IMG/VR virus record: IMGVR_UViG_3300036791_000399 | Location: 10,076-74,075 of that record | Length of the DNA: 64,000 nt | Strand: one strand, 5' to 3' | Source of the DNA: a virus | In this document: in pieces, positions 1-35,500 of the stretch | Layout of the letters: every line of letters starts with the position of its first letter | Position numbering within the stretch: the first letter of the stretch is position 1 | Translations under genes and position numbers: made by a program | Notes under the pieces: generated by a model | Told to the model about the DNA's origin: nothing | The model's input: only the letters and a program-made list of their open reading frames with translations | Database searches by the model: none

Positions 1-210
1 GTCAAAGCGATCAAGAAATCTAGCCCTGGCGTGAATCCGTGGGCTGTCGGAACGGCTAGCCTCCAACGCGCGGGTGAACTCAAAGCCGGAACTAACCAAC
101 CGACCAAGCTCGGCGTGAAGCGTGGCAAGATGAGTCGCAAAGAGCGTCACGCACATCCGCTAGCGACGGGAGGGGCGGTTAAGCCGTCGCTCGGCCGAGC
201 GGGGCGCTAA
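1..210 (+). CDS. 3' end of a small basic protein truncated by the window edge (VKAIKKSSPGVNPWAVGTAS...HPLATGGAVKPSLGRAGR*)
   Basis: Frame 1 is open from base 1 to TAA at 208-210 (manual translation); carries the LATGGAV copy of the virion GG motif. Confidence 0.6.
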   Translation, partial: VKAIKKSSPGVNPWAVGTASLQRAGELKAGTNQPTKLGVKRGKMSRKERHAHPLATGGAVKPSLGRAGR

Positions 211-437
211 GCGCCAGGACCGTTGATCCGCCGAAGGATGTCGGTGCATTCGTCGATCACATTGATCAGTTTGCCGTCGACGGTTTGGATCGAGCAGTGG
301 ACGTCGGAGTGCAGAAGGTCGCTCTGCGGCTTGCGGATTGACACGATCTCTCGCGGGTTGACGTAAATGTCCTGCCCGTCCAGGCTGTGAACCAAGATCA
401 GTATCACGGCGGCGACAAGCAGCTTCATGGCGCGCAC
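207..437 (-). CDS. small hypothetical protein resembling the FlbD/SwrD small domain
   Basis: Pattern LxxLDGxxIYVNPxxIxxI...IQTVDGKxIxVxxxxxxIxxxI; GGAGGGG upstream. Confidence 0.5.
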   Translation of the reverse strand: MRAMKLLVAAVILILVHSLDGQDIYVNPREIVSIRKPQSDLLHSDVHCSIQTVDGKLINVIDECTDILRRINGPGA

Positions 438-476
438 CGCCGCCTGGACCCCTCCGCTCGGTAGATTAGCAGATCT

Positions 477-505
477 TTGTCACGCGCGCTGGAGTGGGAT
501 AGAAC
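477..505 (+). promoter_or_regulatory. sigma70-like promoter upstream of the portal operon
   Basis: TTGTCA-17 bp-TAGAAC, followed by a purine-rich RBS region (GGAGG, GGAGA) before ATG 547. Confidence 0.45.
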
Positions 506-546
506 TTTTCGCGAGGTGAGAGGGGAGGTGCTGGAGATCTCATCCC

Positions 547-897: not shown

Positions 898-900
898 TCC

Positions 901-3567
901 ATGCCTGCAGGCCTTGGGGCCATCCGTCTGCCGGCGTCACCGGTCGACGGAATGGACGATATGGCGACGCCGCCATTCGGCGGCCGCCAGGGCACCGTCG
1001 TCATCGACCTGGGGGACGACGAGCCCGACATCCCCGAGGTCGATACCGACAAGGGCGTCGAGATCGAGGGCGGCGGCGTCATCGTCCGAATCGGGCCTGC
1101 GCTCGCCGACAGGAAGAACCTAAAGTTCAACGACAACCTCGCCGAGGCGATCCCGCGCAATGTTCTTGGCGGGATCGCCGACGAACTGCTGCAGCGCATC
1201 GAAGAGGACAATAACTCGCGCCGCGAATGGCTCGACACCCGAGCGCGCGGCATCGAGATCCTGGGCCTGAAGATCGAGGCTATGCGATCGAGCGGGCCCG
1301 ATGGCTCAGCGCCCCTGGAGGGCCAGTCGCAGATCCGCGCCAGCCTCTTGTGTGAGGCGGTCGTACGATTTGGGGCGAACGCCTTTTCCGAGCTTTGCCC
1401 GACCGACGGGCCGGCGAAGGTCACCGAGGACACCGCAGCCTCGACCGCCGATCTCGACGACCTCGCCGACGCTCTGGAGAAGGTGCTCAACCATTACCTG
1501 ACGACGATCGACAAGCCCTGGGTGCCAGACACCGACGCGATGCTGTTGCGGGTCGGCGTCGATGGTTGCGTGTTCAAGAAGGTCTATCACGATCCCATTC
1601 TCCGCAGACCGATCTCGCGCGCCGTGTTCGGCGAAGACGTGATCATCAACAATTCCGCGACCTCGATCTATGACGCCAAGCGCATCACGCACCGGGTGAT
1701 GATGGCGCCGTCGACCCTGCGCCGGATGCAATTGGTCGGCGCCTATCGCGACGTGCCGCTCGGCGATCCTGGCTGGAAGCAGAAGGACGCGCCCGAGATT
1801 CAGTCGGAGCAGATCGGCGGCGTACGCAGGAACGAGAGCTACGAGCGCGACGATCGCGATCACGAGATCTTCGAATGCTACTGCGAACTCGACCTGGAGG
1901 GTTTCGAGCACGAGACAGCCGGCGAACCGGACGGTCTTGCCGTGCCTTTCAAGGTGGCGATCGATCGTGAATCGAAGGAGGTGTTGGAGATCCGGAGGAA
2001 TTGGAACGAAGAAGATGACATGTGTTTGCCAAAGACGTTCTTCGTCCAGTTTCCATTCATTCGAGGCTTTGGAATTTATGCTATTGGCCTCTCGCATCTC
2101 TTGGGCAATATTACAAACGGCATCACTGCTGCTTGGCGAGAGTTCATCGATGCCGGGATGTTCGCGAACTTTCCTGGCCTATTGGCTGCAAAGGGGGCTG
2201 GGCGGCAAGACAATTCTGTAATCAGGATCCCTCCTGGCGGCGTTAAGGAGATTGAGACCGGCGGCTTGCCGATACAGCAAGTCGTGATGGGAATGCCCTA
2301 CAAATCCCCCGACGCCACCTTCGTTCAGTTCATTCAGCAGCTAAACTCAGAGGGCCAGCGCCTCGGCGGCACCGCCGACGTGATGGTGGGCGAGGGCCGT
2401 CAGGACGCGCCAGTCGGGACGACCCTCGCTCTCATCGAGCAGGCGATCAAACCGCTCCTCGCCACTCACAAACGATTGTGCGCCGCGCAATCGGATGAGC
2501 TTCAGCTTCTTGTCGAGCGGTTCCGCGAGGATCCCCAGGCGCTCTTCCGGCATCAGCGGCCGAGCGCCAACGGGTTTTCCTGGGACGAGCAACTGGTTCT
2601 CAAGGCGCTGAACACCTACCAGATCGTCACGCGCGCGGATCCGAACACCGCCTCGCACCTGCAGCGCATGTTGCGCAACGCCGCGCTCTACATGATGGCG
2701 AAGGACGACCCTGCCGCCTTCAATCTGATGACGGTGCGGCAGGTTTGCATCCGGGGCATCGGGTTCGCGAATCCGGCGCAGTTCATCAATCAGAACCCGC
2801 AGCCGCCGCCCCCGGATCCGAAGGCGATCGCCGCGCAGACGACTGCCCAGGCGGCGCTTCTCGACGCCCAGGCGAAGATGGGGCAACTGCAACTCGACGC
2901 GAAGAACGCGCCGATGGAGGCGCAGGCGCGGCAGATGGACGCGAGCGCCAAGATCCAGGCGGCTCACGCCGGGGTGCAGAAGCAGCAGCTAGCCACGCAG
3001 ACCGCCGGGATGCAGGCGCGTAACGAGCAAATGAAGCCGGCGATGGAGCAGGCTGGGCGCCAGCACGAGGCGGAGCAGAACCAAGCCGATCGGCAGACCG
3101 ACATCCTCAAGGAGCAGTTGAAACACGCGCACGAGATGCGGCTCGCGGGGATGGAGCAGCAAGGCGACATGCAGAAGGCCGGCATGGAGCAGCAGGGCCG
3201 TTTGGCCGAAGTCGGAGCTAAACACCAGACTGAAGTTGCTAAAGCCGGGATGCAGCATCAGGCGTCGATGGAGGAGGCGCATCTGCAGCATCAATCCGCC
3301 ATGGCCCAGGGCGCGCAGGCGCATCAGACCGAAATGGCGAAGGGGCAGCAGCAGCAGGCCACAGCCATGGCCACAGGCGCGCAGCAGCACGAGGGCAAGC
3401 TCGCCGAGATCAAGGCTCAGCCTAAGCCCGCGGCCGCGGCGCCGAAGCGGGCGACCGGCGGCCGGGTGACGACGCCGTTCGGCGAGGCGCGGCAGGCGCC
3501 TGACGGGCACCACTACGTCAAGCACCCGATTTCTGGGCAGTACTTCCGGGTGAAGAGGGGCGAATAA
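901..3567 (+). CDS. portal protein (P22-like podovirus type) with long Q/H/A-rich C-terminal extension
   Basis: Conserved portal blocks (FNDNLAE, SRREW, GCVFKKVYHD, FIRGFGIYAIGLSHLLG, DAPVGTTLALIEQ); size and position. Confidence 0.9.
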   Translation: MPAGLGAIRLPASPVDGMDDMATPPFGGRQGTVVIDLGDDEPDIPEVDTDKGVEIEGGGVIVRIGPALADRKNLKFNDNLAEAIPRNVLGGIADELLQRIEEDNNSRREWLDTRARGIEILGLKIEAMRSSGPDGSAPLEGQSQIRASLLCEAVVRFGANAFSELCPTDGPAKVTEDTAASTADLDDLADALEKVLNHYLTTIDKPWVPDTDAMLLRVGVDGCVFKKVYHDPILRRPISRAVFGEDVIINNSATSIYDAKRITHRVMMAPSTLRRMQLVGAYRDVPLGDPGWKQKDAPEIQSEQIGGVRRNESYERDDRDHEIFECYCELDLEGFEHETAGEPDGLAVPFKVAIDRESKEVLEIRRNWNEEDDMCLPKTFFVQFPFIRGFGIYAIGLSHLLGNITNGITAAWREFIDAGMFANFPGLLAAKGAGRQDNSVIRIPPGGVKEIETGGLPIQQVVMGMPYKSPDATFVQFIQQLNSEGQRLGGTADVMVGEGRQDAPVGTTLALIEQAIKPLLATHKRLCAAQSDELQLLVERFREDPQALFRHQRPSANGFSWDEQLVLKALNTYQIVTRADPNTASHLQRMLRNAALYMMAKDDPAAFNLMTVRQVCIRGIGFANPAQFINQNPQPPPPDPKAIAAQTTAQAALLDAQAKMGQLQLDAKNAPMEAQARQMDASAKIQAAHAGVQKQQLATQTAGMQARNEQMKPAMEQAGRQHEAEQNQADRQTDILKEQLKHAHEMRLAGMEQQGDMQKAGMEQQGRLAEVGAKHQTEVAKAGMQHQASMEEAHLQHQSAMAQGAQAHQTEMAKGQQQQATAMATGAQQHEGKLAEIKAQPKPAAAAPKRATGGRVTTPFGEARQAPDGHHYVKHPISGQYFRVKRGE

Positions 3568-6500
3568 TGCCCGTCCAGGATTTCGGCGACACTGACGGTT
3601 GGACCGCCGAGCCGGTCGATCATGATCCGTTCTCTTCTGAAACGAACCCGTTCGTTGCAGGGAATGTAGGGAACGAATCGGGACCGTTTCGGAAAACCGG
3701 ATTTGCTGGCCACATTGCGGCGACCTCGGACGCCAGCCATCCGCTCACGGCGCGCTCGCTGCCGTTCGCCGCCAGCCAGCCGCAGGAATCCGTTTCATCG
3801 TACGATCCATCCTGGGCCGAGCAGATCGAGTCCGGGGTGGGTGACACCGCTGAGAGCGCGGGGATCCCCAGGGTAGGCGCGCAACGGCTCGGGTCGACGG
3901 CGCGCACTGCGGCCGAATTTACGCCGTTCGTCGGCAACGTCCTGGCGGGCAATGAGGCTTATCGCGCTCAGCAGCGTGGCGATCCCTTTGGCGCAGTGCT
4001 GCATGGCGCGATGGCGGTGCCGATCCCTGGCGCGTCAACTGAGGAAGGCGCGGCGCGTCGTTTGACGCCGCTCGGGTTCTATTCGCATGGCGCCGATGTC
4101 GCGGCGAACCTGCCGCAGGCGAAGGGAACGGCCGAGCAAATGCTCTCCCAACTGGGCAAGCGCGGCGTCAAGCCAGAGGAAATGACACGAGCCGGGGTCA
4201 CCGAAGACAATCTTGCCCTGCCCTTATTCGCCAAGCAGCCGATCACCAGAGAGGAACTGGCCGAGCGCTTCGATCAAGCCATGCCAAAGCTTCAGGAGAC
4301 GGGCTACGGCCAGCAATACTATCGGAACGACGAGTATGGCGGCGGGACTAAATACGATCAGTACACGCTCCCTGGCGGCCAGAATTATCGCGAGTTGCTG
4401 CTGCATCTGCCGGAGGGGCAGGAAACGACGCCTCGCCAGGGCTACGCCATTTTCCACGCTAGCAATGACGACCGGACCCCGGAAAGTCCTGTATTTGCCA
4501 CCGAAGCAGAAGCGCGGCGCGAGCTTGAACGATATCCGCCCAGCCTCGCCTATGAGGTTAGAGATGCGCCGTTTAAGGGAGAGGGCGAGGGGGCAGGCGA
4601 TTACCAAAGCTCCCATTGGGACGTCCCCAATGTCGTCGCTCACTTGCGGATGTCAGATCGGAAAGGCACAGGTGGCGAAAACCTACTGCACCTTGAAGAA
4701 CTGCAAAGCGATTGGGGGCAGGAGGCGCGAAAGGAAGCGGAGGTGAATAGGGTCGCCCCTGGCCCAAGCGATACCGGCGTCCCTAACGCTCCCTTCATTG
4801 GCTCGACTCAAGGCTGGACGGATCTCGGTCTGAAGCGGGCGCTGATTGAGGCTGCGCGCGGCAATTACGATGGCTTGATTTGGACTTCGGGCGCCGATCA
4901 GGCGGCGCGCTATGACCTCTCCAAACAGATCAGCGATTTGTCGTACAGCCCTGACTTCGGTTCTTTGCAGGGGCGCACCACGCGGGGTTATCGAGGCATC
5001 AACGAATCCAACATTCCGCCCGAGAAGCTGGCGGACTACGTCGGCGCCGAGACTGCGAAGAAGCTGCTGGGTACGCCGCTTGGCCCGCATTGGAATGCTG
5101 GGGGCGGGGCTACATTCGAGGACGGCTGGCACACGCTCTCCGGCCTCGATCTCCAGACTGGCGGCGAGGGAATGAAGGGCTACTACGACCGCCTTCTTCC
5201 GAATCGGCTCGCAACGCTGACCAAAAAGCTCGACCCCGACGCTAAGGTCGGCACGACGCGGGTTCCAGGCTTCCTGGATTTGACCCCCTTTCGTGAAGGA
5301 GGCGGCCAATATTCGGTTCAGAACCGCGCAGGCGACTTCACCGATGCGGGACCGCGCTTCAACAGCAAGGCCGAGGCGCTTGACGAGATCGCGCGGCGCA
5401 AAGCCGCCGATCCTGGCAAGGAGTTCCAGCATCTCCCGATCACGCCGCTGATGCGTGAGAAGATCCTCAAGGGCCTGCCGCAGTACAAACGGGGAGGGAG
5501 AATCGCGATGGCTGACGGCGGCGCATCTGACTACGTGCCAACCGGTTCCGTCACTTTCGCTCATGGCTCCCTGGAGCCGGTCGACGGGGATCCTTTCCCC
5601 CCTGCGCCTCAAGTCCTGGACAGCGACATCAATCGCGCCAAGGGCTTTCCGGAGCCGCGCTCGCCGATGCACGATCGCATCGCCGCCGCCTCCCAGGACG
5701 ATCATGGCGACGCGCCAGCCACGGGCGTCATCTCGCCCGAAGCCATGTATCAGCAAACCCCGCACTCGACGGAAACGCTGGCGCACTACGCCGGCAACCC
5801 GGAGCACGCGATGCCGCTGCGGATCGGCGCCGCGGTGGGCGAAGAGGGCAAGCGCATGGGCCAAGCGCTGTGGAGCGCCGCTACGGCTCCTGGGGACGTG
5901 CTCACCGGCAAGGCGAGCATGGCGGATCCGGAGACGCAAAATCGGGTCATAGGGCTGGCTGCGTCGTTGCCTGGAGGAGGTCCGGAGGCGGCGCTCGGCG
6001 CTCGCGGGCCGGTCGGCGCTGCTGCCAAAGCCGCAAAGCGCGCCCCAGCGGAGCGCGAGCTTAACACCTGGAACGCAGAGACTGGCCAATGGGAGGGCCC
6101 AAAACCAAAGATGAACCCGCCGGAGGGCGTGACTTACCCGCCGCTGTTCAACCTCGACCCAGAGGTGATGAACAAGGTGCCGGATGTCCCCCAGTTCGAC
6201 TTGCCGCGCTATGACCCGCCGCGCGGCGTCTCGGAGCGGATGCGCGACTTGGTGACCAATCCGGATGTCCGGAAGCAAATGATCCAGTTGGTCCGCAACG
6301 GGATGCAGACCGTTGGGCTGAGTTGGTACAATACTGGCCAGCTACGCGCCATGTTCTTGAAGGAACTGGGTGACACTGAGGGGCAGCAGGCTTTTGAGAA
6401 GTACATGAATCTCGTGTCAGCCACGAGTCCTGAGAACAAGATCCCGCAGAACATCAGAACAGCTAGCCATTTCTATGAGAGAGACGCGCAAGGCGTGCCG

Positions 6501-7223
6501 CCGCCGGAACGAGGCGATCCAATTGCGCAGCCCTACGGCTCTAAGGCGCAGAAGCTTCACCAGCAAAACGTGAAGAACGTCCTAACCGAAGGCTATGACG
6601 TCCTGCAAAATCCGAAGCCGCCGTCTTTCGTTCAGAACCTGATGGGTAATTACGCCCCTGGCACGATGGACCGGCACGCCTTCAAGCTCCCGGCGATGCT
6701 GTCTCGTGATCCGCGCTTCCTGGAGACGTCGTTCACGCCGGAGAAAGGCGCGGCGCCGGTGCGCCCCCAAGAGATGTATCGAAACGGGAAGCTGACGATT
6801 GACGATGCGGTCAATCAGCCGACCATGTGGGCGGGTATGCCGAACAAGAACGAATATGCCGCGCTTGAGGGCTACTACAAATCGATCGCCGATGAACTCG
6901 GGATCACGCCAGCCCAGGTGCAGGCGTCGGCCTGGGTGGGCGGCGGACACGTCACGGGGCTGGCCTCAGCCGCTGACGAGACGTTCCTGCATTCTTTCCA
7001 GGGGAGAGTCTTCAACACTGCGCACCATACCGGGCAGACGCCCGCGGAAGTGGTCAGGAAGATGATTCGCGGCGAGCAGCCTTTGTTGGCGGGCGGGCCG
7101 GGAATGGCACCAGTTCTCCCGCAGGGTCAGGCTCGGAAAGAAGCTCAAACTTCGACGGCTGGGGCGGGAGCTTTGCCTCCGCAACCATCTGATCAAGAAC
7201 TTCGCGAACACCCGTTTTATTGA
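3567..7223 (+). CDS. large polyvalent virion-associated protein with two enzyme-like modules; the second is HhH-GPD/DNA-glycosylase-like
   Basis: Module 1 YRELLL..SHW..NVVAHLR..LHLEELQSDW; module 2 WY..SATSP..N..PKPPSF..TMDRH..Y..A.ELG.TPAQVQASAW; start overlaps portal stop (TAATG). Confidence 0.75.
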   Translation: MPVQDFGDTDGWTAEPVDHDPFSSETNPFVAGNVGNESGPFRKTGFAGHIAATSDASHPLTARSLPFAASQPQESVSSYDPSWAEQIESGVGDTAESAGIPRVGAQRLGSTARTAAEFTPFVGNVLAGNEAYRAQQRGDPFGAVLHGAMAVPIPGASTEEGAARRLTPLGFYSHGADVAANLPQAKGTAEQMLSQLGKRGVKPEEMTRAGVTEDNLALPLFAKQPITREELAERFDQAMPKLQETGYGQQYYRNDEYGGGTKYDQYTLPGGQNYRELLLHLPEGQETTPRQGYAIFHASNDDRTPESPVFATEAEARRELERYPPSLAYEVRDAPFKGEGEGAGDYQSSHWDVPNVVAHLRMSDRKGTGGENLLHLEELQSDWGQEARKEAEVNRVAPGPSDTGVPNAPFIGSTQGWTDLGLKRALIEAARGNYDGLIWTSGADQAARYDLSKQISDLSYSPDFGSLQGRTTRGYRGINESNIPPEKLADYVGAETAKKLLGTPLGPHWNAGGGATFEDGWHTLSGLDLQTGGEGMKGYYDRLLPNRLATLTKKLDPDAKVGTTRVPGFLDLTPFREGGGQYSVQNRAGDFTDAGPRFNSKAEALDEIARRKAADPGKEFQHLPITPLMREKILKGLPQYKRGGRIAMADGGASDYVPTGSVTFAHGSLEPVDGDPFPPAPQVLDSDINRAKGFPEPRSPMHDRIAAASQDDHGDAPATGVISPEAMYQQTPHSTETLAHYAGNPEHAMPLRIGAAVGEEGKRMGQALWSAATAPGDVLTGKASMADPETQNRVIGLAASLPGGGPEAALGARGPVGAAAKAAKRAPAERELNTWNAETGQWEGPKPKMNPPEGVTYPPLFNLDPEVMNKVPDVPQFDLPRYDPPRGVSERMRDLVTNPDVRKQMIQLVRNGMQTVGLSWYNTGQLRAMFLKELGDTEGQQAFEKYMNLVSATSPENKIPQNIRTASHFYERDAQGVPPPERGDPIAQPYGSKAQKLHQQNVKNVLTEGYDVLQNPKPPSFVQNLMGNYAPGTMDRHAFKLPAMLSRDPRFLETSFTPEKGAAPVRPQEMYRNGKLTIDDAVNQPTMWAGMPNKNEYAALEGYYKSIADELGITPAQVQASAWVGGGHVTGLASAADETFLHSFQGRVFNTAHHTGQTPAEVVRKMIRGEQPLLAGGPGMAPVLPQGQARKEAQTSTAGAGALPPQPSDQELREHPFY

Positions 7224-7787: not shown

Positions 7788-8342
7788 TTATGGGGAGCGC
7801 CAATAGTGAAACTGTCCTCGCTCTTTCATGGCCGCGATCTCGTAGATACGGGCCGCCTCTTCGGCGGTAGCGAAATATCCAAGATGGCGTTTTACGCCAT
7901 TGGAGCGTATCTCGGCTTGAAATTTCCTATTGCGCTGCACCACTCCACGGAACCCAGACTTGCTCTTCGTCTTTCGTTCTTGGTTCCAATTTTGCTCCGT
8001 CACTGTCGCCAACCGCAGTTGCTCCCAGCGATTATCGTTAGGCTTGCGATCCTTGTGATCGATCGTGTTCGGAGGGTCGCGGCCGGTCATCCATTTCCAA
8101 ATCACGCGATGCGCGAGATAGAGATCGCCAGCGATGCCGATTTGGCATTCACCACGCTTTTTGGGCACCCCCGCAGGTTTCCTTGCGTAGCGCGTGTTCC
8201 AAATTTTCCAAGCCCTTGTCGTGACGAAATGGTCTTGCGGTCGCTGCTTCCATGTCAGCGCGCCATTCTCCGGGTCATAATCGAAACAGGCGCGCAAGAA
8301 GTTCTGCGAAGGCAGAATTTTGTTAGGATAGGAGTTAGGCAT
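7788..8342 (-). CDS. HNH homing endonuclease with C-terminal AP2-like domain, antisense insertion
   Basis: YDPENGALTWK, AHRVIW, IDHKDRKPNDNRWEQLR, SGFRGV..HLGYF.TAEEAA; flanked by hairpins at 7781-7798 and 8368-8402. Confidence 0.9.
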   Translation of the reverse strand: MPNSYPNKILPSQNFLRACFDYDPENGALTWKQRPQDHFVTTRAWKIWNTRYARKPAGVPKKRGECQIGIAGDLYLAHRVIWKWMTGRDPPNTIDHKDRKPNDNRWEQLRLATVTEQNWNQERKTKSKSGFRGVVQRNRKFQAEIRSNGVKRHLGYFATAEEAARIYEIAAMKERGQFHYWRSP

Positions 8343-9318: not shown

Positions 9319-9536
9319 TGCTCGATGCGTCGTCGCTCTATTTCGGGCGCAGGCTCCTGGAGATGATTCAAGAGAAACAACTCGAAATGCAAAAGCCGCT
9401 CTTGTCGGGGGCGGCGCTCGATTACCCCGACTACAAGGACCGCGCCGGGTATCTGCGGGCCTTAGCCAACGTCGTTAGCTGGATGGAAAAGATCAGCCTG
9501 GAGGAGGAAAACACTCGTGGCGCAAGTAGCCTATAG
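9315..9536 (+). CDS. small helical phage protein
   Basis: Translational coupling (ATGA); DYKDRAGYLRAL; typical position before phage GroES. Confidence 0.75.
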   Translation: MMLDASSLYFGRRLLEMIQEKQLEMQKPLLSGAALDYPDYKDRAGYLRALANVVSWMEKISLEEENTRGASSL

Positions 9537-9930: not shown

Positions 9931-9932
9931 AA

Positions 9933-21588: not shown

Positions 21589-21590
21589 CC

Positions 21591-24496: not shown

Positions 24497-27400
24497 ATGC
24501 CATTTATGACTGTGAAATTAATTCCGGGGGTCAGGGCTGAACAGACGCCATTGTTGCTACAGACTGGAATTACACAAAGCAACAACATTCGCTGGCGCGA
24601 TGGCCTCGCGGAGAAAATCGGCGGCTGGAAGAAGTTCTACAACGCGGCGATTGCCGGCCCGGTGCGCGAGCTATGGACGTGGGCCGACCTGGACGGCGCC
24701 AACCATCTGGCGGCCGCGGGCGGCAATAACGTCAATGTCATCACCGGCACTTCCCTAAGCCCGGTCGGCCCGCTCGCCGCAACTCGACATCCGAGCGGAT
24801 TGGCGACGACCGCCGGGTCGCCGCTCGTTGTGGTCACCGACACCGGTTCGAACGCTAGTACTTATGAAAGCGTCACCCTGCAGACCCCCTATGCCATTAG
24901 CGGTGCAGGTGGCTTCGTCATCTATCCAGGCAGCTATCCGATCGTCGCCGTCGCTGACGGTTCTCACTACACGATCAACATCGGCCAAAACGCTACTCTG
25001 ACCGCCTCCACTGGGACGCTCTGCACGATCAGCAGCACTCTGGGCTCGGCGACGTTCACGGTCGCTCTTCCGAACCACAATCTTGCCGTCGGGGCGAGCT
25101 TCTCGATCATTCTCCCGACTGCGGTTGGCGGAGTGGTGCTGTCAGGCTTCTATACGGTCGCTTCGGTTGTCGACTCCGGCCACTTCACCATCATGGGGCC
25201 GAACCAAGCAGTATCCGCCCAGACTTCGAACTACGGCAATCTCTCGACTACCCAACTCATCCAATGGGTCGTTAAAAGCCAACAGCCTCCGCCAACGCTT
25301 ACGGCCATTGCTGCATTCGCGTCTGGTTATGCGGGCATCATGATGCCGCCGAACCCCGGCAACATTACGCCAGGGATGACGGTGTACGATGAGACAACCA
25401 ACCAGACACTCGGCATCGTGCAGAGCTATGGCCCGCTGACGGCCAGTCAGACCCTGACCAATGGGTTCGCCTCTGGGGCGACGTCGATCAACATGGCGCC
25501 CAATACGAACACGCTTGGCGTGATTCCCGGCATGACCGCTACGATCAGATCATCGCTCTTGGGCACGGTTTCAGCCTATGTCGGCAGTACGCTCACCCTG
25601 GCCGCTGCTACGACTTTCCCGTCCACGTACAGCATCACAGCCTCGGCTGCGTTTACGACCGCCTACCAGGGCATCATGGTGCCGCCCAATCCAGGCTTCG
25701 CAGCCGCAGGCTTGACTGTCACCGACCTCACGACTGGCCACTCGCTCGGCACGGTCGCGACCTACAAGAATTACCCGATACTGACCGATCTTGTTCAGTT
25801 CGCTAATCACTCCTGGGTGATCGGCGCGACCTCTGTCGACATGACCCCCTACACCAATGCTGGCAATGGCGGCGGCGGTGATAATCCCATCATCCCCGGC
25901 ATGACGATTGGTGACTCCAATGTCGGGGGAGGCACGGTCGTCCTCAGCACGGTCGGCGCCTATATCGGCCATACGCTCACCTTTGCGACTCCGGCTGCAT
26001 ACAGTTCTGCTACAGGCTTTGACCGGCTTGAATTTCAGACCACCGGGACGCAAAACGTCCTCGGCCTGACAGGCAACATCGCCGCCAACAGCGCCGGATC
26101 CAACGACACTCTGGGGTTCGTAGGCGCTTCGATTTCCAATGATCCGGTGACGTTCAGCAGCGGATCCAATCACGTCCTGATTTTCACTGCGCCTCTCAGC
26201 ACCAGTAGCGCCGGGGCGAACGATGTCCTGGCGTTCATCGGGGCATCGGCGCCGCCGCCGACTGTGACAGCGCAAGCAGGGTTTACGACCGACTACTGGG
26301 GCATCGCGGTGCCAGCTAACCCAGGGCCCATTGTCAATGGCATGTCGGTTGTCGATCAGACCACCAATCAGTTTCTCGGCACGGTCGCAAGTTACGGGAC
26401 GGTGACGAACGCTCGGCAAGTAGTGGCATGGGGAATGGCGGGCGGCGAAGGCACTCCGGTCGGCATCGGCGAGACTAGCGCGGACATGACCCCCTATACG
26501 AACCATTTTCCAACACCGATCATTCCCGGCATGACGATCGTCGACCATGATCAGAGCAAGACTGTCGGCACAGTCGTCAGCTACATCGGCAACATCCTGA
26601 CCTGGACGCCTGCGATCACCTTCACTGCAGATCCTGGCGATGAGTGGCTGTTCAGCAGCGGGACACAAAACGTCCTCGGCTTGAACACCTTTCTCGATGC
26701 CAACAGCGCCGGATCCAGCGACCTCCTGTCGTTCATTGCTCCATCAGGGCCGCCACCGGCTGGCACAACGCCGATGTCGGCCGACGATTGGTGCATGTTC
26801 AATTTCGGCAGCGTCCTTCTCATCAATCCGCAAGACGGGCCGATCTTTCAGTATGACCCGACGAGCGGCCTTAGCACTGCGCAATTGGTTCCGAACGCGC
26901 CGGTCGCGGCGCATGGCATGTTCCTCGCCATGCCGCAGCAGATGGTGGTCGCCTACGGCGCCTCGGTCCAGGGCGTCCAGGATCCGATGCTGGTCGCTTG
27001 GTCCGACGCGGGCAACTACAACACCTGGAAGCTCGCCGTCGGCAATCAGGCCGGAACCTTTCGCTTGTCGCGCGGCTCGATGATCGTCGGCGGGATGCAG
27101 ATGCCGATGCAGGCGATGCTGTGGACCGACGTCGGTCTTTGGCTGATGACGTACATCGGTTATCCGGATGTCTGGGGGTTCTCCGAGATCGCCCAAGAGT
27201 GCGGGCTGATCGCCAAGAAGGCGGCGGGCGTGCTCGGCTCCCAGGTCTTCTGGATGGGCAGGGATAAGTTCTGGACATTCACCCAGGGCCAAGTTCAGCC
27301 GCTCCCGTGCGAGGTCTGGGACGCTGTCTTTCAAAACCTCAATACGGATCTCCTCCACCTCATTCGCTGCGGCACAGACACCGCCTTCGACGGCGTCGGA

Positions 27401-28006
27401 TGGTTCTATCCGTCGCTCGCGACGAAGCAGCCAGGGGCGCTGCAGGAGAACGATTCCTTCGTCAAGTTCAACCGGGTCACCGGAGAGTGGGACTATGGAA
27501 CGCCGATCGACGTCTTTGGCGACGGGAAGACCGGCGGCTCCCTGATCTCCGACTGGATCGATGCGAACGTGTACGGCAATCCGATCTCGGCGATGACCGA
27601 TTCGACCGGCACGCTCTCGCAACTCATGTGGATGGACATGGGTCAGGACGCCGATGGCGCGCCGATCGATTGGTGGTTCCGCACCGGTCTTTTCCTGCTT
27701 AGCGAGGGCGAAGATTTCCTTTTTGTCGACCGCTGCCGGCCTGACTTCAAATGGCGGAAGTTCTCAAGCCCATCGACGCCGAGCGCGCAGATCAAAATCA
27801 CCTTGTACGCCTACGAGGACAGCGACAATCCGGCGAAGCCGCCTTCCATCTATGGGCCGTTCACCGTCGCTGATGATTCGGGACCGTTTGACCCGAGAGC
27901 GCGCGGGCGTTACTTCTCGCTGAAGGTAGAAGGGAACGATCTCGGCAGCTTCGCCCGCATGGGTGCGGTGAAGTTTCGCTTTGCACCGGACGGAAGGGCC
28001 GGGTGA
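24497..28006 (+). CDS. tail tube/nozzle (stabilisation) protein, beta-propeller type, with a large nested beta-domain insertion
   Basis: IRWRDG..EKIGGW N-terminus; DPM.V.WSD..NQAG..RL..GS, CGLIA, FWMG, PRARGR C-terminal blocks. Confidence 0.8.
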   Translation: MPFMTVKLIPGVRAEQTPLLLQTGITQSNNIRWRDGLAEKIGGWKKFYNAAIAGPVRELWTWADLDGANHLAAAGGNNVNVITGTSLSPVGPLAATRHPSGLATTAGSPLVVVTDTGSNASTYESVTLQTPYAISGAGGFVIYPGSYPIVAVADGSHYTINIGQNATLTASTGTLCTISSTLGSATFTVALPNHNLAVGASFSIILPTAVGGVVLSGFYTVASVVDSGHFTIMGPNQAVSAQTSNYGNLSTTQLIQWVVKSQQPPPTLTAIAAFASGYAGIMMPPNPGNITPGMTVYDETTNQTLGIVQSYGPLTASQTLTNGFASGATSINMAPNTNTLGVIPGMTATIRSSLLGTVSAYVGSTLTLAAATTFPSTYSITASAAFTTAYQGIMVPPNPGFAAAGLTVTDLTTGHSLGTVATYKNYPILTDLVQFANHSWVIGATSVDMTPYTNAGNGGGGDNPIIPGMTIGDSNVGGGTVVLSTVGAYIGHTLTFATPAAYSSATGFDRLEFQTTGTQNVLGLTGNIAANSAGSNDTLGFVGASISNDPVTFSSGSNHVLIFTAPLSTSSAGANDVLAFIGASAPPPTVTAQAGFTTDYWGIAVPANPGPIVNGMSVVDQTTNQFLGTVASYGTVTNARQVVAWGMAGGEGTPVGIGETSADMTPYTNHFPTPIIPGMTIVDHDQSKTVGTVVSYIGNILTWTPAITFTADPGDEWLFSSGTQNVLGLNTFLDANSAGSSDLLSFIAPSGPPPAGTTPMSADDWCMFNFGSVLLINPQDGPIFQYDPTSGLSTAQLVPNAPVAAHGMFLAMPQQMVVAYGASVQGVQDPMLVAWSDAGNYNTWKLAVGNQAGTFRLSRGSMIVGGMQMPMQAMLWTDVGLWLMTYIGYPDVWGFSEIAQECGLIAKKAAGVLGSQVFWMGRDKFWTFTQGQVQPLPCEVWDAVFQNLNTDLLHLIRCGTDTAFDGVGWFYPSLATKQPGALQENDSFVKFNRVTGEWDYGTPIDVFGDGKTGGSLISDWIDANVYGNPISAMTDSTGTLSQLMWMDMGQDADGAPIDWWFRTGLFLLSEGEDFLFVDRCRPDFKWRKFSSPSTPSAQIKITLYAYEDSDNPAKPPSIYGPFTVADDSGPFDPRARGRYFSLKVEGNDLGSFARMGAVKFRFAPDGRAG
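25290..26745 (+). repeat. six homologous beta-domain units in a nested arrangement
   Basis: G(M/L)xxxD..LG(T/I)VxxY N-halves and L.....S.G..D.L.F C-halves; DNA similarity between ~26044-26108 and ~26660-26725. Confidence 0.7.
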
Positions 28007-28007: not shown

Positions 28008-28235
28008 ATGGCTCCCCTATCGGGCTTAACGGGCGATCTGCAGACCGTCGTGACTGCTTTGCAGCAGTTGACGGTCAAGGTCGGCGATCTCATCAAGCAA
28101 ATTTCGCTCTCGGCGCCGCCGGCAAATATCGCCGGTCTCGTGAATGCGGCGAACGATAGCGCCGCAGCCACCGCAGGCGTGCCGGTCGCGGGCATGTACC
28201 GGAATGGCAGCGTACTCATGGTTAGAGTGACGTGA
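28008..28235 (+). CDS. small tail needle/plug-like protein
   Basis: Short coiled coil plus ANDSAAATAGVPVAGMYRNG; start at ATG 28008. Confidence 0.65.
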   Translation: MAPLSGLTGDLQTVVTALQQLTVKVGDLIKQISLSAPPANIAGLVNAANDSAAATAGVPVAGMYRNGSVLMVRVT

Positions 28236-28966
28236 TGCCCGGTTTCAATCCAATCCCCTCCAGCATTCAGATCTCGCGGATGTTGCGCCGGCCGCCGGCT
28301 GTCGGGGGCATCGGGTTCCACTCCGGCATTAAGCAGGCGCCGTTCCCCTTAAAGCGGGCTTTAGGTGGGTCCATCCCCGACAATCCGATGACGCCGGTCA
28401 TCGGCGCCATCAACACGGCGACCCCAGGGCGCGCCGACGCGCACCCGACGCACGTCCCGCCTGGAAGCTACGTCATGCCTGCCGACCTCGTCTCGATGAT
28501 CGGCGAAGGCAACACCGCGGCAGGGCAGGCGATGCTCGCCAAGATGTTTCTGCCGATACAGGCTCAGTCGACGAATCCGATTGCGCAGATGCGGGGCGGC
28601 CCGCCTGGAGGCGGGGGTGCGCCTTTCGGAGCCGAGATGCCGGGATTGCGATCGAAGCCGATGGGTCCGCCACGGCCGATCGAACCGACAATCGTCGGCG
28701 AACCCAAATATCCGATCTACGCTGGGCCCGGTAAGCAGGGCCCTAACTTCGTCCAGGCGCATGGCGGCGTCGTGCAAGGCTCTCCGGACCAACCGGGCAC
28801 TCCGATCAACATTAGCGGCGGCGAGTTTGTGATCCCTCCGCAGGAGGTCAAGCGTCGGGGGCGGGGGGACATCAACCGGGGGCACGAGATCCTCGACGCC
28901 TGGATGAAAGACCTCCGCCAGGAGCACATTAAGACGCTGAAGAAGCTCCCAGGGCCAGCGACGTGA
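28232..28966 (+). CDS. protein with two GG-motif-led copies of a G(S/E)(Y/F)V(M/I)P domain; candidate GG-processing or binding factor
   Basis: RALGG..PGRAD..VPPGSYVMPADLVSMIGEG and QAHGG..ISGGEFVIPPQEV..G.GD. Confidence 0.7.
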   Translation: MMPGFNPIPSSIQISRMLRRPPAVGGIGFHSGIKQAPFPLKRALGGSIPDNPMTPVIGAINTATPGRADAHPTHVPPGSYVMPADLVSMIGEGNTAAGQAMLAKMFLPIQAQSTNPIAQMRGGPPGGGGAPFGAEMPGLRSKPMGPPRPIEPTIVGEPKYPIYAGPGKQGPNFVQAHGGVVQGSPDQPGTPINISGGEFVIPPQEVKRRGRGDINRGHEILDAWMKDLRQEHIKTLKKLPGPAT

Positions 28967-29514
28967 GCAAGAAGTTCAGCCACAACAATCGGCCGCCGAA
29001 ACCGCCGACGGATCTCTCCCACATTCGGCTCGCTGGAGAAGCCGATGAGATGCAGATCTTCAACTTGTGCAGCCTGATGCACGCGGAGGTCGGGCTTCAC
29101 CCGCTGGACTGGCCGAAGATCGCTGCCATGATCCGGCTGGCGACCATGCGAACGCGGGGGATCGTCGGCGTCATTGGCGAGCCGCACGATCTCAAGGCGG
29201 CGATCTTCATGATGATCGAGCCGGTCTGGTACAGCAGCGCTTTCGTTCTTTTGGACTACTTCACTTACGTCAGGCCTGACGCTCGCCAGAGCACCTACGC
29301 CACCGACCTCATCGCCTATGGCAAGCAGTGCGCTGACGGCCTCGGCATCGATTTTGTTTGTGGCGTATTTTCAACTGTTCGTACAGAAGCAAAGTGTAAA
29401 CTCTATCGCCGCGTGATGCCGAAGGTCGGTGAGTTTTATCGCTATCAGCCGAAACCGGAGACGGCAGAGCTTAGCCATTTGTCACAAACCGCCAACCGCG
29501 TAGCCGCAGAGTAG
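28963..29514 (+). CDS. GNAT-fold acetyltransferase-like virion assembly protein
   Basis: IRLA..AD, WYS, YVRPDARQS, KLYRR pattern; position before the ejection genes. Confidence 0.7.
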   Translation: MSKKFSHNNRPPKPPTDLSHIRLAGEADEMQIFNLCSLMHAEVGLHPLDWPKIAAMIRLATMRTRGIVGVIGEPHDLKAAIFMMIEPVWYSSAFVLLDYFTYVRPDARQSTYATDLIAYGKQCADGLGIDFVCGVFSTVRTEAKCKLYRRVMPKVGEFYRYQPKPETAELSHLSQTANRVAAE

Positions 29515-29526: not shown

Positions 29527-32500
29527 ATGGGCTCGGTATGCGGAGGCAGCAGCAACCAAACAACGACCAATTCGAGTTCGCCTCCGCCGCAGACGCAGGC
29601 TGACTACCAGGGCTTAATCAATCGCGCGACCGCGGTCGCGAACACGCCCTACACCCCCTATCCCGGCGAGCAGGTCGCCCCGCTCAGCAATCAGACAAAC
29701 ACCGGCCTCGCCAACCTCAACCAGTACGCCTACGCCGCTCAGCCCTATCTGCAGAAAGCGGGCCAGATGACGCAGGGCGCTGCGGCGCCGGTCACTCCGC
29801 AGGCCTTCTCCGGCTCGGCGGTCGGCCAATTTGAGAACCCGTTCACGAGCGACGTGATTCAGGCGACGCAGAACGAGTTCAACAATCAGAACGCTCAGCA
29901 GGCGCAATTCCTCAATAGCCAGAACATTGGCGCGGGCGCATTCGGCGGTGATCGGGCGGGCCTGTCGCAGGCGATCTTGGCCGGTCAACAACAGACAGCC
30001 CAGGCCCCGGTAATCGCAGGCTTGAATCAGGCGAACTACAATCAGGCGCTGGCGGAGTTCAACAATCAGCAGCAGACCGGCCTCGGCGCGCAGGAGTTCA
30101 ACAATCAGCAACTCGGCCAGATGGCCAATCAGTACGGCCAGATCGGCCAGGGGATACAGACTGGAGGCCTGCAGGGCGCAACCGGCCAAATCACCGGAGG
30201 CATGGTCCCGCAGGGCGAACAGCAAGCGATCGACACCGCGCTGCAGAACAACTGGAACCTCGGGCAGGCTTACCCGTATCAGTCGACCGGATTCCTCGGC
30301 AACATCATCGAGGGGATCGGAAGCCAGCAGGGTGGGGTCGGGCAGACGACGTCGCCGGGGCCGAGCGGGCTCAGCCAAATCCTGGGCGCCGCCACCGCGG
30401 GCACGGGCGCGCTGTCGAACCTGTTCGGCTCTGCCGCTGGGGGCACGAGCGCGGCGGCCGGGATCGGCACCGCGCTCTCTTCCCTCTTCGGCTTCTCGGA
30501 CGAGCGCCTGAAAGAGAACATCGTCCCGGTCGGCAAGACCTTCGACGGTCAGACGATCCATAAGTACAACTTCAAAGGCGACCCCAGGACCCAGATCGGG
30601 TTGCTCGCGCAGGAGGTCGAGCGGCGCCATCCTCATGCCGTCGCCGAGGGCCTGGGCGGCCTGAAGGGCGTCAACTACGACGCGGCGACGAGAGAGTCCG
30701 AGCGCGCCGGTTTCGCGGACGGCGGCGTTTCCCCCGGCTCGATCTTCGACCTCGGCGTCGGCAAGCAGGCGTCTCCGGCCGGCGCGCTGGCGTTGATGGG
30801 TGTTCCTGGCGCGAGCGCGGGGACGGGTCGGTTCGGCGCCGGCTCCCTGTCCATGACGCCAGGGGGCACGCTCTTCGGCCGCGGCGAAGCGCCGGTATCC
30901 ACCGGAGGCAATGGACCGTCGCCTTCCAATCCCCTCCAGGGCGGCCCCTGGCAGCATCCCGCTGCGCCGTATACCGCCCCGCAGCCAGGGCCGATGCTAG
31001 CGCCTCGGTCCGGAGTGCAAATGCAAGCGCCAGCGGGGCTGGCCCATGGCGGTCGCGCAGGTTTCGACATTGGCGGTCCGACCGGGCTCGGCAATGTTGA
31101 CATGACCAACATTCCGAACACGCCGTTCGTCGATTTCTCGACCCCGTTTGCGATTGCCCAGGGCACCGGGGTTCCAGGCCCCAACGCCGGTATTGCGAAT
31201 ATCGAGTTCTCCTCGGCCAGTGAGGCGGGAGGCGGGAACAAAGTCTCCGGGCAGACGATCGGCACGTCGAACCTCGCGCCGTCGCAGATCAATCTCTCGG
31301 GCGCCCCTCCTGGCACGACCTTCGCGCCGATCGACTATCAGAACCCAGGCAGCGACTTTCAGACCGCAGGCGCAGAGGCGAGCCTCGGCCCGCATTATTT
31401 CACCGTCGGCAAGAATGGTGAATTGGTCTACGGCGGCGAAGGCACGGGCCCGAGCGGCAGCGTCAATCAGGGGGAGTTGCTCCCTCGTCCCGGCGGGAAC
31501 CTGCCTACCGACACGCCGAAGACTGAGAACGCGCCGCCCGTCGCCGCGCCTGCGGCTGGTCCTGCTGCTCCTGCGGCTGGTCCCGCTACGCCCGTTATCC
31601 CAGCGGGGGGTCGCTCAACGGGGTACAGCGCGAGGGCCATAGCCAACAACCCGTGGCTGGCGAATATGTCTATTCCGGGTGATGCGTTGACTGCTCCCCA
31701 GGCCCATGGCGGCCCTGGCGCAGGCGCGAGCGGCGGTGGGGCGGGCGCGGGCGCGTGGACTGGCGGCAGAATGCCCTTCCAAGGCGGTGGAGGCCTCGAT
31801 GACCCCCGCTACAGCTTCTATACGCCGACGACCGGCAACGCGCGCGGGGCGACCTATCATCCGCCAATCCCGACGCCGCCCACTCCGCAACCGATATATA
31901 CGCCGCGTCATGTCGTGCGTCAGCGTGCGCCGGTCGCTCCGCCGCCGCCCAGGAACTACCCATTGCCTCCGCCTCGGCCGCAGGATCCGCCGCCGCCGCC
32001 CACAGTGGCCGCCGCTCCGATGCCGCTGCCAAGGCTGGATGATTTTCCGCCTCCGCACCCGGACTTCACCGCCCCCAGGTCGGTCGTCGACCCGATGTCT
32101 GGAACGAATGCGGGAATGAACCCGCCACAGGCTGGCGGGAGCATCTTCCATTCCCTCTTGCCCGCCATGCAGGGTCCGCGTGGCTACACGGCGTCGCCGC
32201 CGTCCGACCCCGATCCAGATAGGGCCCGAGGGATCGATATCGCCAGAGGCCTCCTGGACAACCGTCCAGGCTTTTGGAACTCGGGCGGCGTGATGGGCCA
32301 GATGCCGCTCGCGGGCGCCACCGGTTACACGCCGCAGGGCCAGGGCGTGACTGGCTTTGACAGCCAGGGCGCGGCGATGGGCTCGGGCAGCGTGGCGAAG
32401 AAGGCTGCGGGCTTCGACGGTCTGTTCGGCTCCGGTCTGCGCCAGGGCGGTCGCGTGAGCTTCGCGGACGGCGGTCTGAGCGGGCTCGGGATAGATCCGT

Positions 32501-35500
32501 CTGGGGTGCCGGTCATCCAACCGATCCCCTTCGATATTCTCAAGGGTGTCCAGCCGTTGCCGGTGGGCAAGGGGCCGCCGCATCCGACCGATCCGAAGCA
32601 GCAGCAGTCGTCCAGCGACGCAGCGAATACCGGCGGGGCGCTCGGCAAGAGCATCAGTTCGCTCGCGAACGCTTTCAAGGGCAGCGGCAGCGGCGACGAT
32701 GCCCTCGACGCCGCCATTCCGTCAGATCTCTCCGGCGTCGACATGAGTGGCGATTTTGCCGCGTTGCCTGACGACACCTTCGACTTTGGCCTTGGCGGGA
32801 TCGTACGACCGCATTTTGACGATGGCGGCGGCTCTACCGGTGATGGCGGCGACGGCGATGGCGGCTCTACCGGGTTCGGCGGCGGCGACACCGGATTTGG
32901 CGGCGACACCGGATTTGGCGGGATGGGGATGAGTGTCGGTTATGCTGGTTCTCCGACCGGTCCTGGCATCGGGTCTGACGCCGTGGCGGGGGGAACGGCG
33001 GGCGATACTGGCGGCGTCGCAGCAGGGGCCGGTCCTCACGGCACCGCAGGTGCTGTCGGTTACGGCGGCGGGAGCGTCGGCTATGGCGGGACGCATGGCG
33101 GCGGGACGGCAGCGGGCAGCGCAGGAAGCGCAGGTGCTGGTGCGGCTGGCCCAGGCGGGGCGGGCCCTGGCGGAGGCACGGGCGGCGGCGGACATGGAGT
33201 GGGTGCAAGTGCAGGAGCGCCAGGAAACGTCGTAGCAGGCGATTCGCCTCGCGCAATATCTACGGCACTCGAAAATGCGCTGCATCAACAGGCGCTAGAC
33301 GCGCTTTACGGGATGCAGCACAGCAGCCCAATCGGCAACCCGCTTACGGAATTTGGAGTGCAGAGGGCCGGTGGGGTTAGCACAACTGGCGTTCCAGGCC
33401 TCAATTCACAGTCAATCGCTGATCTCTCTGGACAGAATGGTCCAGCTGCACAAGTTGCGGCTCGTCAGGCAAGGGCGGGGGTCGGTGCCCCTAGCCCAGG
33501 GCTGAGCCCTGCTGTCATTTCGGCGATAAATAACGGAATGCGTACAAACGCATTTAACACTCGTCCGACAGGAGCGGAAAGCGTAAGCACGGCCGGTTTG
33601 AGCGCGCCCAGGGCGGCTCCGGCTGTGAGCACGTCGGTGAGCCCGTCAGTAAGTAAGCCGCCTAGCTTTGAGATTGCGCCGACTTATTCGTTTGCGCCGC
33701 GAGGCACGCCTGTTTCCTCGCCCGCGAATACGCCGACAGCGTTCGCGCCCCGAAACACGCCGACGGTCATCGCTAATCCTGGCGACACCACCCCAGGCCT
33801 CGGAGGGCTGACCACAGACCCTGGAAGCACCCAGCCAGCCGGGGGACGGATACCGGGCCTCGCCGTCGCAGGCGACCAGTATGCGCAGCAGGTGGGGCAT
33901 GGCGGCCGCTGGGGCGGCGGCAGAATTTCCTTCGGCCTCGGAGGAATTGCACGATCTGGTTATGCTGATGGCGGCACGCTTCTCGGTCCAGGTCCGCCCG
34001 CGCCTCCGGAGCCCCCGGAGCCTGCTCCGACCGCTCCTATTGCTCCTGCCGCGCCCCTGGCGGAGGCCGCGCCTGCGCCCGCATCGTCCGCATCGTCCGC
34101 ATCTCCGTTCGTCAAGCCGACGCGCGAGCAGGTGCTCGCCTACAATGAGTCGATCGCGGCGAAGCACGGGAATAACCCGGACGTCGTGCGCAAGGTGCTC
34201 AGCGGCGAAATGGGGGGGAAGGATCCCTATCAGGTCGGCGACGCCGGATCGAGTTTCGGCCCCTGGCAACTGCACGAGGGTGGTATCAACCCGGCGATGA
34301 ACCACCCCGGCATGGGCGACGAGTATAAGGCCGCGACCGGGCACGATCCGAACGATCCGCATTACTGGCAGGAACAGAGCGACTTCGCGCAGTCGAAGAT
34401 GGCGGAGCGGGGCCTGCAGCCCTGGGCGACGACGGCTGGCAAGCTCGGCCTTGGCCGCTATGCCAACTTGAACGCCGATGCGCCCTCCGGCGGTGCGCAG
34501 CCCGTCCAGGCGGAACAGGCGCAGCAGCAGACGCAGGCAGTGATGGACGACGCCGAGCGGGCTCCGGACAGGCGGATGATCCAGCCGAGCGTTGGCGACG
34601 CCTTGATGGCGGCCGGTTTCGCGATGATGGCGGGCACCTCGCCGCACGCCATGGTCAACATAGGCCAGGGCGCGCTGGAGGGCATGAAGTACTACCAGAA
34701 CCAGCGACAACTCGATCGCGAGTGGATGAAGAACCAAGCTGAGATCGACAACTATGGCAGCGAGGCGCGCTATCGTGATGCCCAGACCTCTATCGCCACC
34801 CAGAACCTGAACATTGAAATGTACAAGGCCAAGCTCGGCCAGTGGAACGTCCAGTATCAGGGCTGGCTGGCGGCTGGCGGTCATGGCGATCCGCCTCCGA
34901 TGCCAGCGTTGCCGACGTCGTTCGGCGGGTCGGCGACCACTAAGTCAGCGGCTGCGGCTGCGCCTGCCCCAGCGCCAGACTCAGCAGCGGCTCCGGCTCC
35001 GTCACCCACTGCGGCCACTCCCGCTCCGACCTCGACTGGCCCTGGCCCGCTTGTAGCCCCTAAGAAGGCCGCTGGAGCCCCTCCAGTTGCCGCGCCTACC
35101 GCGACACCCCCGAAGGCGGCAACGCCAGCCCCTGCGGCTCCTGCGGCTCCTGCTGACACGACTGCGGCTGCTGGTGCGCCATCCGGTGCGCCTGGGCCGA
35201 CTGATCCGTTCTGGAAGAGCGTCCCTGCCGATCAGAACCCCTACGAACTGATCCGCTTGGCGAAGCTCTATCGGGCCGGGGCGGGCGTTAACCCCGAGAA
35301 CGCGAAGACGGCGGACGAGTATGAAGCCCGCGCCCATTCCATCTGGGACAGCGGCATGGCTGGCGGCGTCCAGATCCCCGGCGTCTCGCAGCAAAAGGCG
35401 ACGACGAAGTATAATGAGGAGATCGCGGGCGAGACTGGCAAGGAAGACGCCAAGCTCCCGGCGCAGATGGATAAGCGGGCTGAGATGGACACTCAGCTAA

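Follow-up and report, generated by a model that had tools for sequence, protein, structure and literature searches.

The DNA considered here is a 64 kb stretch (positions 10,076 to 74,075, hereafter the window, to which coordinates refer unless the genome is named) of the 74,075-bp IMG/VR virus record IMGVR_UViG_3300036791_000399, with a guanine plus cytosine (GC) content of about 62%. The two ends of the record share 223 bp (genome 1-223 and 73852-74075), and it is therefore a complete phage genome, circularly assembled or terminally redundant, with a unit length of about 73.85 kb. A podovirus virion module is encoded on the plus strand between 1 and about 39 kb, and the remainder comprises replication, integrase and early genes. 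Several of the virion-module proteins share a short di-glycine motif with the consensus [basic or aromatic]-[A/K]-x-G-G-[R/K/x]-[V/I], with a second a-x-G-G often following 5-6 residues on. The carriers are proteins expected inside the capsid, and it is proposed, tentatively, that the motif is most likely a short linear peptide for the docking or tethering of internal, ejected proteins. The carriers and their copy numbers are as follows:

1-210, plus strand: edge open reading frame (ORF), the 3' part of the ORF of a complete 77-aa basic protein (genome 10052-10285); one copy
901-3567, plus strand: portal, 888 aa (phrog_1216, E 1.5e-20); one copy
3567-7223, plus strand: polyvalent cargo protein, 1218 aa, two modules (DUF7178, E 1.3e-9); two copies
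8425-9318, plus strand: Gly-rich hub protein, 297 aa, disordered, basic and Gly/Pro-rich; six copies
14288-14683, plus strand: small basic Gly-rich protein, 131 aa; four copies
28232-28966, plus strand: two-unit module protein, 244 aa, first gene of the ejection cassette; two copies
29527-36072, plus strand: giant ejection protein, 2181 aa (phrog_4287, E 1.4e-21; PF13884, E 3.9e-6); about 12 copies

Distribution of the motif in the window

The original prediction had named these carriers and counted about 28 copies. All of the carriers and coordinates proved correct (LATGGAV at 160-180 in the edge ORF, KRATGGRV at 3445-3468 in the portal and the tandem YKRGGRIAMADGG at 5484-5522 in the polyvalent protein), and the count is reproduced only when both GGs of the tandem pairs are included. 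The edge ORF ends in HPLATGGAVKPSLGRAGR, directly before its stop codon. The 14288 ORF carries RARGGVV, RKRGGRL, KATGGGI and RKVGGGV, and the peptide KPS[LM]GRAGR is common to these two small proteins. This second shared peptide lies beside motif copies as KPSLGRAGR in the edge ORF (181-207), SPHMGRPGR in the 8425 ORF (8608-8634) and KPSMGRAGR in the 14288 ORF (14540-14566); EPSMKTGP occurs in a similar small basic protein of phage DSL-LC04. The hub protein has four GGR[IV] copies, with their GG at 8635, 8749, 8890 and 9157, two of which have tandem partner GGs.

It had been claimed that copies sit at domain boundaries, and this holds, for example, at the end of the Peptidase_S74 domain of the giant protein and in the polyvalent protein, where the tandem motif stands between an N-terminal 'EELQSDW' domain and the half that contains DUF7178. 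EPVDHDPF (3609-3632) and EPVDGDPF (5574-5597) begin the first and the second module of this protein, the latter 19 residues past the tandem motif; PVDxDPF was not found in phage MW202675. The single portal copy is close to the C-terminus. It lies at the tip of a C-terminal extension of about 200 residues (2820-3440), rich in Q, A and M and with repeated '...AGMEQQG...' and '...HQTE/S...' blocks, which presumably forms a long barrel.

Enrichment was assessed against nulls of 1000 shuffles each, made over whole proteins or in local windows of 20 or 10 aa that keep the local Gly content. On the virion side (12,278 aa of plus-strand ORFs at 1-39046), GGR[IVL] was observed 12 times against 1.1-1.2 ± 1.1 expected (p<0.001), also under the local shuffles, a Gly-matched null of the kind that the original prediction had asked for; it was absent from the remaining 7,855 aa of the window, where 0.8 was expected. 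The pattern originally given, [RKHFYLM]xxGGx[IVL], was found 18 times against about 6 on the virion side (p<=0.001) and 3 times against 3 elsewhere, and [FYMLI]xDGG was marginal (5 against 1.5, p ~0.02). GG by itself was not enriched (175 against 179-203), and GG-x5-9-GG pairs in the window did not exceed the local-composition null (31 against 33-35). The signal lies in the flanking residues and not in glycine richness. Two matches call for caution: DGGRLF at 21540, one of the 12, is in a doubtful N-terminal ORF extension, and MGGRVL at residue 2055 of the giant protein is inside a C-terminal domain and may be due to chance. As to the former, the plus-strand ORFs 19855-21588 (collagen-like, PF01391) and 21345-23063 overlap by about 240 nt, and the N-terminal part of the second, with its GGRL match, is probably untranslated.

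In the window, no copy was found in capsid, scaffold, adaptor, nozzle, fibre or replication proteins, in agreement with the absence from capsid, fibre and replication proteins that had been noted originally, and the 10 kb of genome upstream of the window (TerL and others) has no copy within a real gene. A chance or compositional origin in Gly-rich, GC-rich ORFs would be in keeping with the unenriched GG and GG pairs, whereas the excess of the core under local shuffles argues against it. The other genes of the window that are named in this text are:

9517-9930, plus strand: GroES-like protein
10460-11443, plus strand: scaffold-like protein
12793-13707, plus strand: capsid protein
plus strand, in the virion module: collagen-like fibres
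23251-24000, plus strand: SU10-type adaptor
24497-28006, plus strand: nozzle
28963-29514, plus strand: GNAT acetyltransferase (phrog_1249), adjoining the module gene in a conserved neighbourhood
plus strand, in the virion module after the giant ejection protein: 990-aa protein
51014-52255: integrase
55769-57865, minus strand: SNF2 helicase
58163-59227, minus strand: SprT-like zincin (PF10263, E 1.4e-9), in the early region beside the SNF2 helicase

There are also three HNH endonuclease genes (7788-8342, minus strand; 9804-10463, plus strand; 63318-63974, minus strand), two of which sit in the head module between the cargo and scaffold genes.

Conservation of the motif in related phages

By portal similarity, the relatives of this phage are the uncultured 'Manatee Spring' phage MW202675 (47% identity), HTVC023P-type pelagiphages, roseophages, Planktothrix phages, DSL-LC04 and Caulobacter phage RW. 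A scan of genome contigs for the host or prophage context returned no relatives. The motif is conserved in homologous genomes, as the original prediction had asked to be checked. MW202675 has FKRGGRVGFAQGG, at the equivalent domain boundary of its polyvalent orthologue, and AKDGGRIGYKDGG, together with five GGK[IV] in its homologue of the 8425 protein and further copies in an M15-containing cargo protein and in ejection proteins. HTVC027P, with only 35% GC, has KKADGGRIGYSIG, MAVGGRVGYADG and YKVGGRVSKMGGG in large proteins encoded next to the portal and in one small basic protein; the conservation is thus independent of base composition. DSL-LC04 has similar small basic motif-bearing ORFs after its capsid genes. 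Caulobacter phage RW has neither the motif nor a cargo or hub gene. The portal-tail copy was considered as a conserved feature and rejected, being absent from the portals of MW202675, DSL-LC04, HTVC027P and RW; related portals likewise end in charged helical tails, without a GG copy.

The hub family comprises 110 homologues with 340 copies, 1-7 per protein, at spacings of 8-315 aa. Its logo reads G/M/L, R (77%), A/K (88%), R/K/S/T, G, G, R/K, V/I, G, R, A, x, G, G. Unbiased anchoring gave R in 77% at -3, A/K in 89% at -2, R/K in 85% at +2 and V/I in 57-95% at +3, over a length of 7-13 aa, and with only one half as the anchor the other half is recovered. Beyond the GG, conservation reaches a further 6-9 residues, tandem copies with a spacing of 8 residues are frequent, and three of the hub copies are alignment columns conserved to at least 90%. 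In the AlphaFold2 model of the hub built with the family alignment (predicted local distance difference test score, pLDDT, 59.6; predicted template modelling score 0.22), every copy is in coil at a pLDDT of about 50. The motif is short with few fixed positions, is located in disorder or linkers, persists where its flanks have diverged and varies in copy number; together with the variable spacing and the co-occurring halves, this is the classic behaviour of a short linear motif. The hub family also conserves a C-terminal tail, YGxGSGLGRxExARRxK (window 9240-9318), and a GGRT-KGKTxVNVII strand followed by a poly-Pro tract, and it may be these elements, rather than the GG copies, that anchor the hub.

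Proteins that bind or condense packaged DNA are known from other viruses, such as VII and mu of adenovirus and the internal proteins of T4. The motif could be read as a basic Gly-Arg nucleic-acid-binding peptide, like an RGG box or AT-hook, that binds or condenses the packaged DNA. R and K dominate positions -3, -1, +2 and +5 in this lineage, the carriers are basic (K+R 43 against D+E 24 in the hub, 16 against 4 in the edge ORF), and basic residues of the ejection proteins of cyanophage A4 grip the first DNA coil (PMC12002296). In many other phages, however, the copies at equivalent positions are neutral or acidic (YADGGEV, FAEGGDV, MADGGLV), and therefore the invariant part is A-x-G-G-x-V and not the charge; a pure DNA-binding role is for this reason very unlikely.

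The module family and the ejection cassette

In the 28232 protein, an AxGG peptide stands before each folded unit (RALGG, GG at 28364; QAHGG, GG at 28763). The protein is no stand-alone oddity; it is a member of a very large family, of which the AxGG peptide is an integral part. The family has 1,838 cluster representatives with two units, each a beta-hairpin and helices (AlphaFold2 pLDDT >90) preceded by a conserved R/F-A-x-G-G peptide, and G46 and G178 are conserved to at least 90%. Its consensus is ...RAxGG...GRTDxxPxxVPxGSYVxPADxVSxLGEGNT...AxGG...VPIxAAGGExVxxPxxV...GDxxxGHxxLDxFV...IKTLKKLPGP. In long family members, InPase or DUF7178 is fused N-terminal to the module, with extra motif copies between the domains, and these fusions provide a Rosetta-stone link from cargo to module. 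A fusion of GNAT and module occurs in 2 of 124 family members.

Searches with the module fold found nothing in the PDB with Foldseek at E<=0.001, and the wide VIA-align search reached a best Z of 3.3; in BFVD only uncharacterised proteins of uncultured phages were matched. The ESM Atlas returned only viral hypothetical clusters, and a crAss cargo protein 1 cluster (0.82) was set aside as below a meaningful score. When compared by sequence with the PDB, the 28232 protein, the 8425 protein and a motif profile of 20 columns yielded chance matches only.

In IMG/VR the module is encoded by more than 525 contigs, and the statistics that follow refer to the 80 best loci, which are independent of one another. 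A cassette is conserved in these, with the adaptor 3.5 kb and the nozzle 2.7 kb upstream of the module, and GNAT 0.65 kb and the giant ejection protein 1.2 kb downstream, each gene being present in 62-79 of the 80 (GNAT in 62). The module-GNAT-giant triad lies directly 3' of the nozzle gene. A second ejection protein (+5.5 kb) has a detectable homologue in only 5 loci, and a positionally conserved copy lies about 55 residues ahead of its C-terminus.

The pattern [FYRKHMW][AK]xGGx[VIL] was found 182 times in the 80 loci against 21.3 ± 3.9 expected, and 116 times against 19.5 ± 3.7 when the module ORFs were removed, an enrichment of 6-8-fold with and without them. The carriers are large (median 789 aa), 81 of 93 are downstream of the module, and among the non-module ORFs only 4 of the 116 copies are within 50 aa of an N-terminus. 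Of five long module-bearing contigs, four match the hub-family profile; one match is a clear hub homologue with five copies, and another has the poly-Pro tract and the conserved C-terminal tail. These counts, the 340 copies across 110 homologues and the presence of the motif at 35% GC, added to the excess in the window, already refute a chance or compositional artefact, which has a negligible probability.

The giant ejection protein and possible cleavage at the motif

The giant protein consists of an N-terminal ejection-protein domain, a Peptidase_S74 domain (residues 324-368, nt 30496-30630) and then about 12 motif copies at nt 30703-33975, among them ERAGFADGG, AHGGRAGFDIGG, LRQGGRVSFADGG, FGLGGIVRPHFDDGG, PAGGRIP and GGGRISFGLGGIARSGYADGG. 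The PF13884 score is 27.5 bits (gathering cut-off 22) and SDERLKENI fits the S-D-x-x-x-K signature, so that the domain belongs to the S74 family. Judged by these sequence features, it is the one genuine self-processing element of the giant protein, and the original prediction had made no use of it. The S74 intramolecular chaperone of endosialidases and tail fibres is usually C-terminal, whereas the copy in the giant protein is internal, with about 1,800 residues after it. Self-cleavage predicted at about Ser324 would free an N-terminal piece of 323 aa, matching the 392-aa 'DNA ejection protein' family phrog_4287. The S74 domain would explain one cut at about residue 324 but not the GG motif. 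In 28 of 40 giant homologues a motif copy lies 60-99 aa past the S74 Ser (75 in the window), at the end of the chaperone domain.

The adenovirus protease cuts (M/I/L)XGG-X and pS273R of African swine fever virus (ASFV) cuts GG-X, in both cases after the di-glycine. On this analogy, the original prediction had suggested that the motif is a maturation site, with a tag that loads cargo into the procapsid as the alternative. In the former case, the polyvalent, hub and giant proteins would be matured by a cut at or after GG, due either to a protease of the phage or the host that has escaped recognition or to self-cleavage with help from the neighbouring fold. The copies at domain boundaries are consistent with this, as is the retention of the polyvalent site in the MW202675 orthologue; a second cut at the end of the S74 domain would excise the chaperone. 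As in the adenovirus, ASFV and ubiquitin-like systems, core proteins carry the di-glycine in accessible linkers; the upstream half of the motif, M/L-R-A-R-G-G, is similar to the LRLRGG of the ubiquitin tail, and some copies stand a few residues before natural C-termini (YHARGGVAK, IIYRGGRWVLQ and LATGGAVKPSLGRAGR, each running to the stop), like ubiquitin-like precursors.

The analogy itself was not sustained. P4 is Ala in 68% or Lys in 20% of the 340 copies and not M/I/L, the primed side (P1'-P7') is strongly conserved, and tandem sites are 8 aa apart. It had been predicted that no prohead protease is recognizable, and Pfam and PHROGs scans of about 45 genome proteins, like those of the recurrent neighbours in the 80 loci, yielded no protease apart from S74 and the SprT-like protein. 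No clan-CE or other cysteine protease, deubiquitinase or JAB domain was detected in the genome proteins (nor clan CE among the neighbours), although a divergent enzyme may have escaped these scans, and there is no beta-grasp fold upstream. This leaves as candidates S74, whose cut is at its own N-terminal Ser, and the early-region SprT-like zincin as the sole possible trans-protease; MW202675 likewise has a stand-alone SprT-like gene. Furthermore, AxGG is kept as a conserved part of the folded 28232 family. Cleavage at the motif is less likely than docking, but it is the strongest rival.

The capsid targeting sequence (CTS) of T4 occurs only at the N-terminus, where the gp21 prohead protease removes it by a cut at L/I-x-E. 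The present motif is similar in that a short peptide is common to otherwise unrelated proteins that are internal to the capsid and injected. It differs from the CTS in that its copies are internal, C-terminal or repeated, its chemistry is A-x-G-G and no protease was found.

Polyvalent proteins are large, multi-domain proteins encoded beside the portal gene, with DUF7178 or InPase, and are expected to be packaged, injected and processed (Iyer et al. 2017, PMC5512222). The 1218-aa protein encoded right after the portal gene, with its DUF7178, is a member of this group, and its relatives carry M15, InPase-like and other domains. The processing of polyvalent proteins, known or predicted, would favour cleavage; it was attributed to an MPTase zincin in a paper in which the words 'glycine' and 'linker' do not occur and whose statements on processing make no reference to such a motif (PMC5512222). 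The present protein differs in having no MPTase, and the only zincin of the genome is the early-region SprT-like gene. No published description of the motif was found in the polyvalent-protein, phiGT1 and A4 papers, the phi24B preprint or the search matches for pelagiphage HTVC023P.

Possible relation to gpH of phage lambda

In the lambda record, gpH carries a FHFATGG...GEFV unit and ends in MRDGGLFSGGGR, directly before the stop. The layout 'aromatic/basic-A-x-G-G-h-x-G ... GE[FY]V' is that of the 28232 family, the pattern A-x-GG ... GE[FY]V ... G-x-G-[DN]-L is present as well, and gpH is likewise internal and ejected. Lambda is a siphovirus with a tape measure, whereas here the unit is a separate podovirus gene, with the short peptide dispersed among many proteins. 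An hhalign comparison of unit 2 of the 28232 family with gpH 732-773 covered 38 columns at E 0.003, with a probability of only 10%. The curated tape-measure models TIGR01541 and PF09718 did not match the window proteins at E<=1 (NCBIfam), and Pfam assigned no tape-measure family among the 124 members of the 28232 family; a search with the gpH C-terminus gave near-identical E. coli sequences only. Hence, homology of the 28232 family and lambda gpH, as judged from these alignments, is plausible but unproven.

It was reported that gpH is cleaved into gpH* and gpHC in a Gly-rich region, with the site and the catalyst unknown (PMC12617516), and the cut region lies beside the FHFATGG...GEFV unit, which is a point for cleavage. 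Residues 818-849 of gpH were modelled intact beside gpI in mature virions and tails (PMC10721106). These residues include the last copy, MRDGGLFS, which counts against cleavage and for docking. With a cut near one copy and the last copy intact, lambda is thus a precedent for both.

The shared layout also suggests that the motif could be a structural element without a partner: a glycine hinge or turn, or the first strand, now degenerate, of what was once an 'AxGG...GE[FY]V' unit, kept for flexibility or for unfolding through the tail channel. The full unit is present in the 28232 family, gpH has the same layout, orphan copies lie in predicted disorder, and the flavour of the motif does not co-vary within genomes (98 of 183 pairs concordant against 112 ± 6.5 expected). 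For a mere hinge, however, there would be no need to conserve R or an aromatic residue at -3, Ala at -2 and V/I at +3 across hundreds of copies, and the expansion of copy number in the hub family suggests selection for valency. A partner-less role is quite unlikely.

A proposed docking role for the motif

The favoured, tentative proposal is that the motif is a docking peptide. In the suggested mechanism, the 5-residue beta-strand-like stretch (R-V-G-Y/R-A) between two glycine hinges would add onto a partner, and docking would tether cargo, hub and ejection proteins mutually and to the tip of the portal barrel during assembly of the internal core. The 28232-type module may be regarded as the best partner candidate, since it has AxGG in cis before both units and is fused to cargo elsewhere. 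Conservation well past the GG and tandem copies 8 aa apart fit a binding strand better than a scissile site. The expansion of valency occurs in the hub, which is encoded between the portal and scaffold genes, and the motif is enriched in and restricted to internal-virion proteins of the window, with its carriers in the 80 loci being mainly large and downstream of the module. The ejection proteins of cyanophage A4 are stacked on the portal barrel, into which they intercalate (PMC12002296), and the copy at the tip of the portal C-terminal extension matches this stacking site.

Several points weigh against docking. We infer, and do not observe, both that the motif binds and what it binds. The AlphaFold2 monomer leaves the module's own AxGG peptides undocked (pLDDT ~60). 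HTVC027P has the motif and no detectable module in the fetched 41.6 kb, so that the module is not a universal reader, and its role as an obligatory partner was rejected. The portal copy is specific to this lineage, the missing co-variation of motif flavour noted above is a further point, and the positions at domain boundaries and after S74 fit cleavage equally well.

A broader and unlikely version of the docking proposal is that A-x-G-G-(R/K)-(V/I) might be a general 'ejectome' address label in a large podovirus clade of more than 525 IMG/VR contigs. The label would sort cargo, hub and ejection proteins into the core and be read in trans by the 28232-type module, with the same logic at the C-termini of lambda-like tape measures.

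Implications

If such a label exists, a 13-mer added to any protein should suffice for its loading into the virion, and the same logic would account for the place, and perhaps the mechanism, of gpH processing. The cleavage site and catalyst of gpH are a question more than 50 years old, for which the FHFATGG unit is a concrete starting point. It is poorly understood how podoviruses choose and order their in-head proteins, among them ejection proteins and very large polyvalent anti-defence cargo, and only the N-terminal targeting sequence of T4 is well defined. A conserved and portable peptide common to all of these proteins would be a testable handle on the loading of cargo, on how the internal core is built on the portal and on the engineering of protein-delivering phages.

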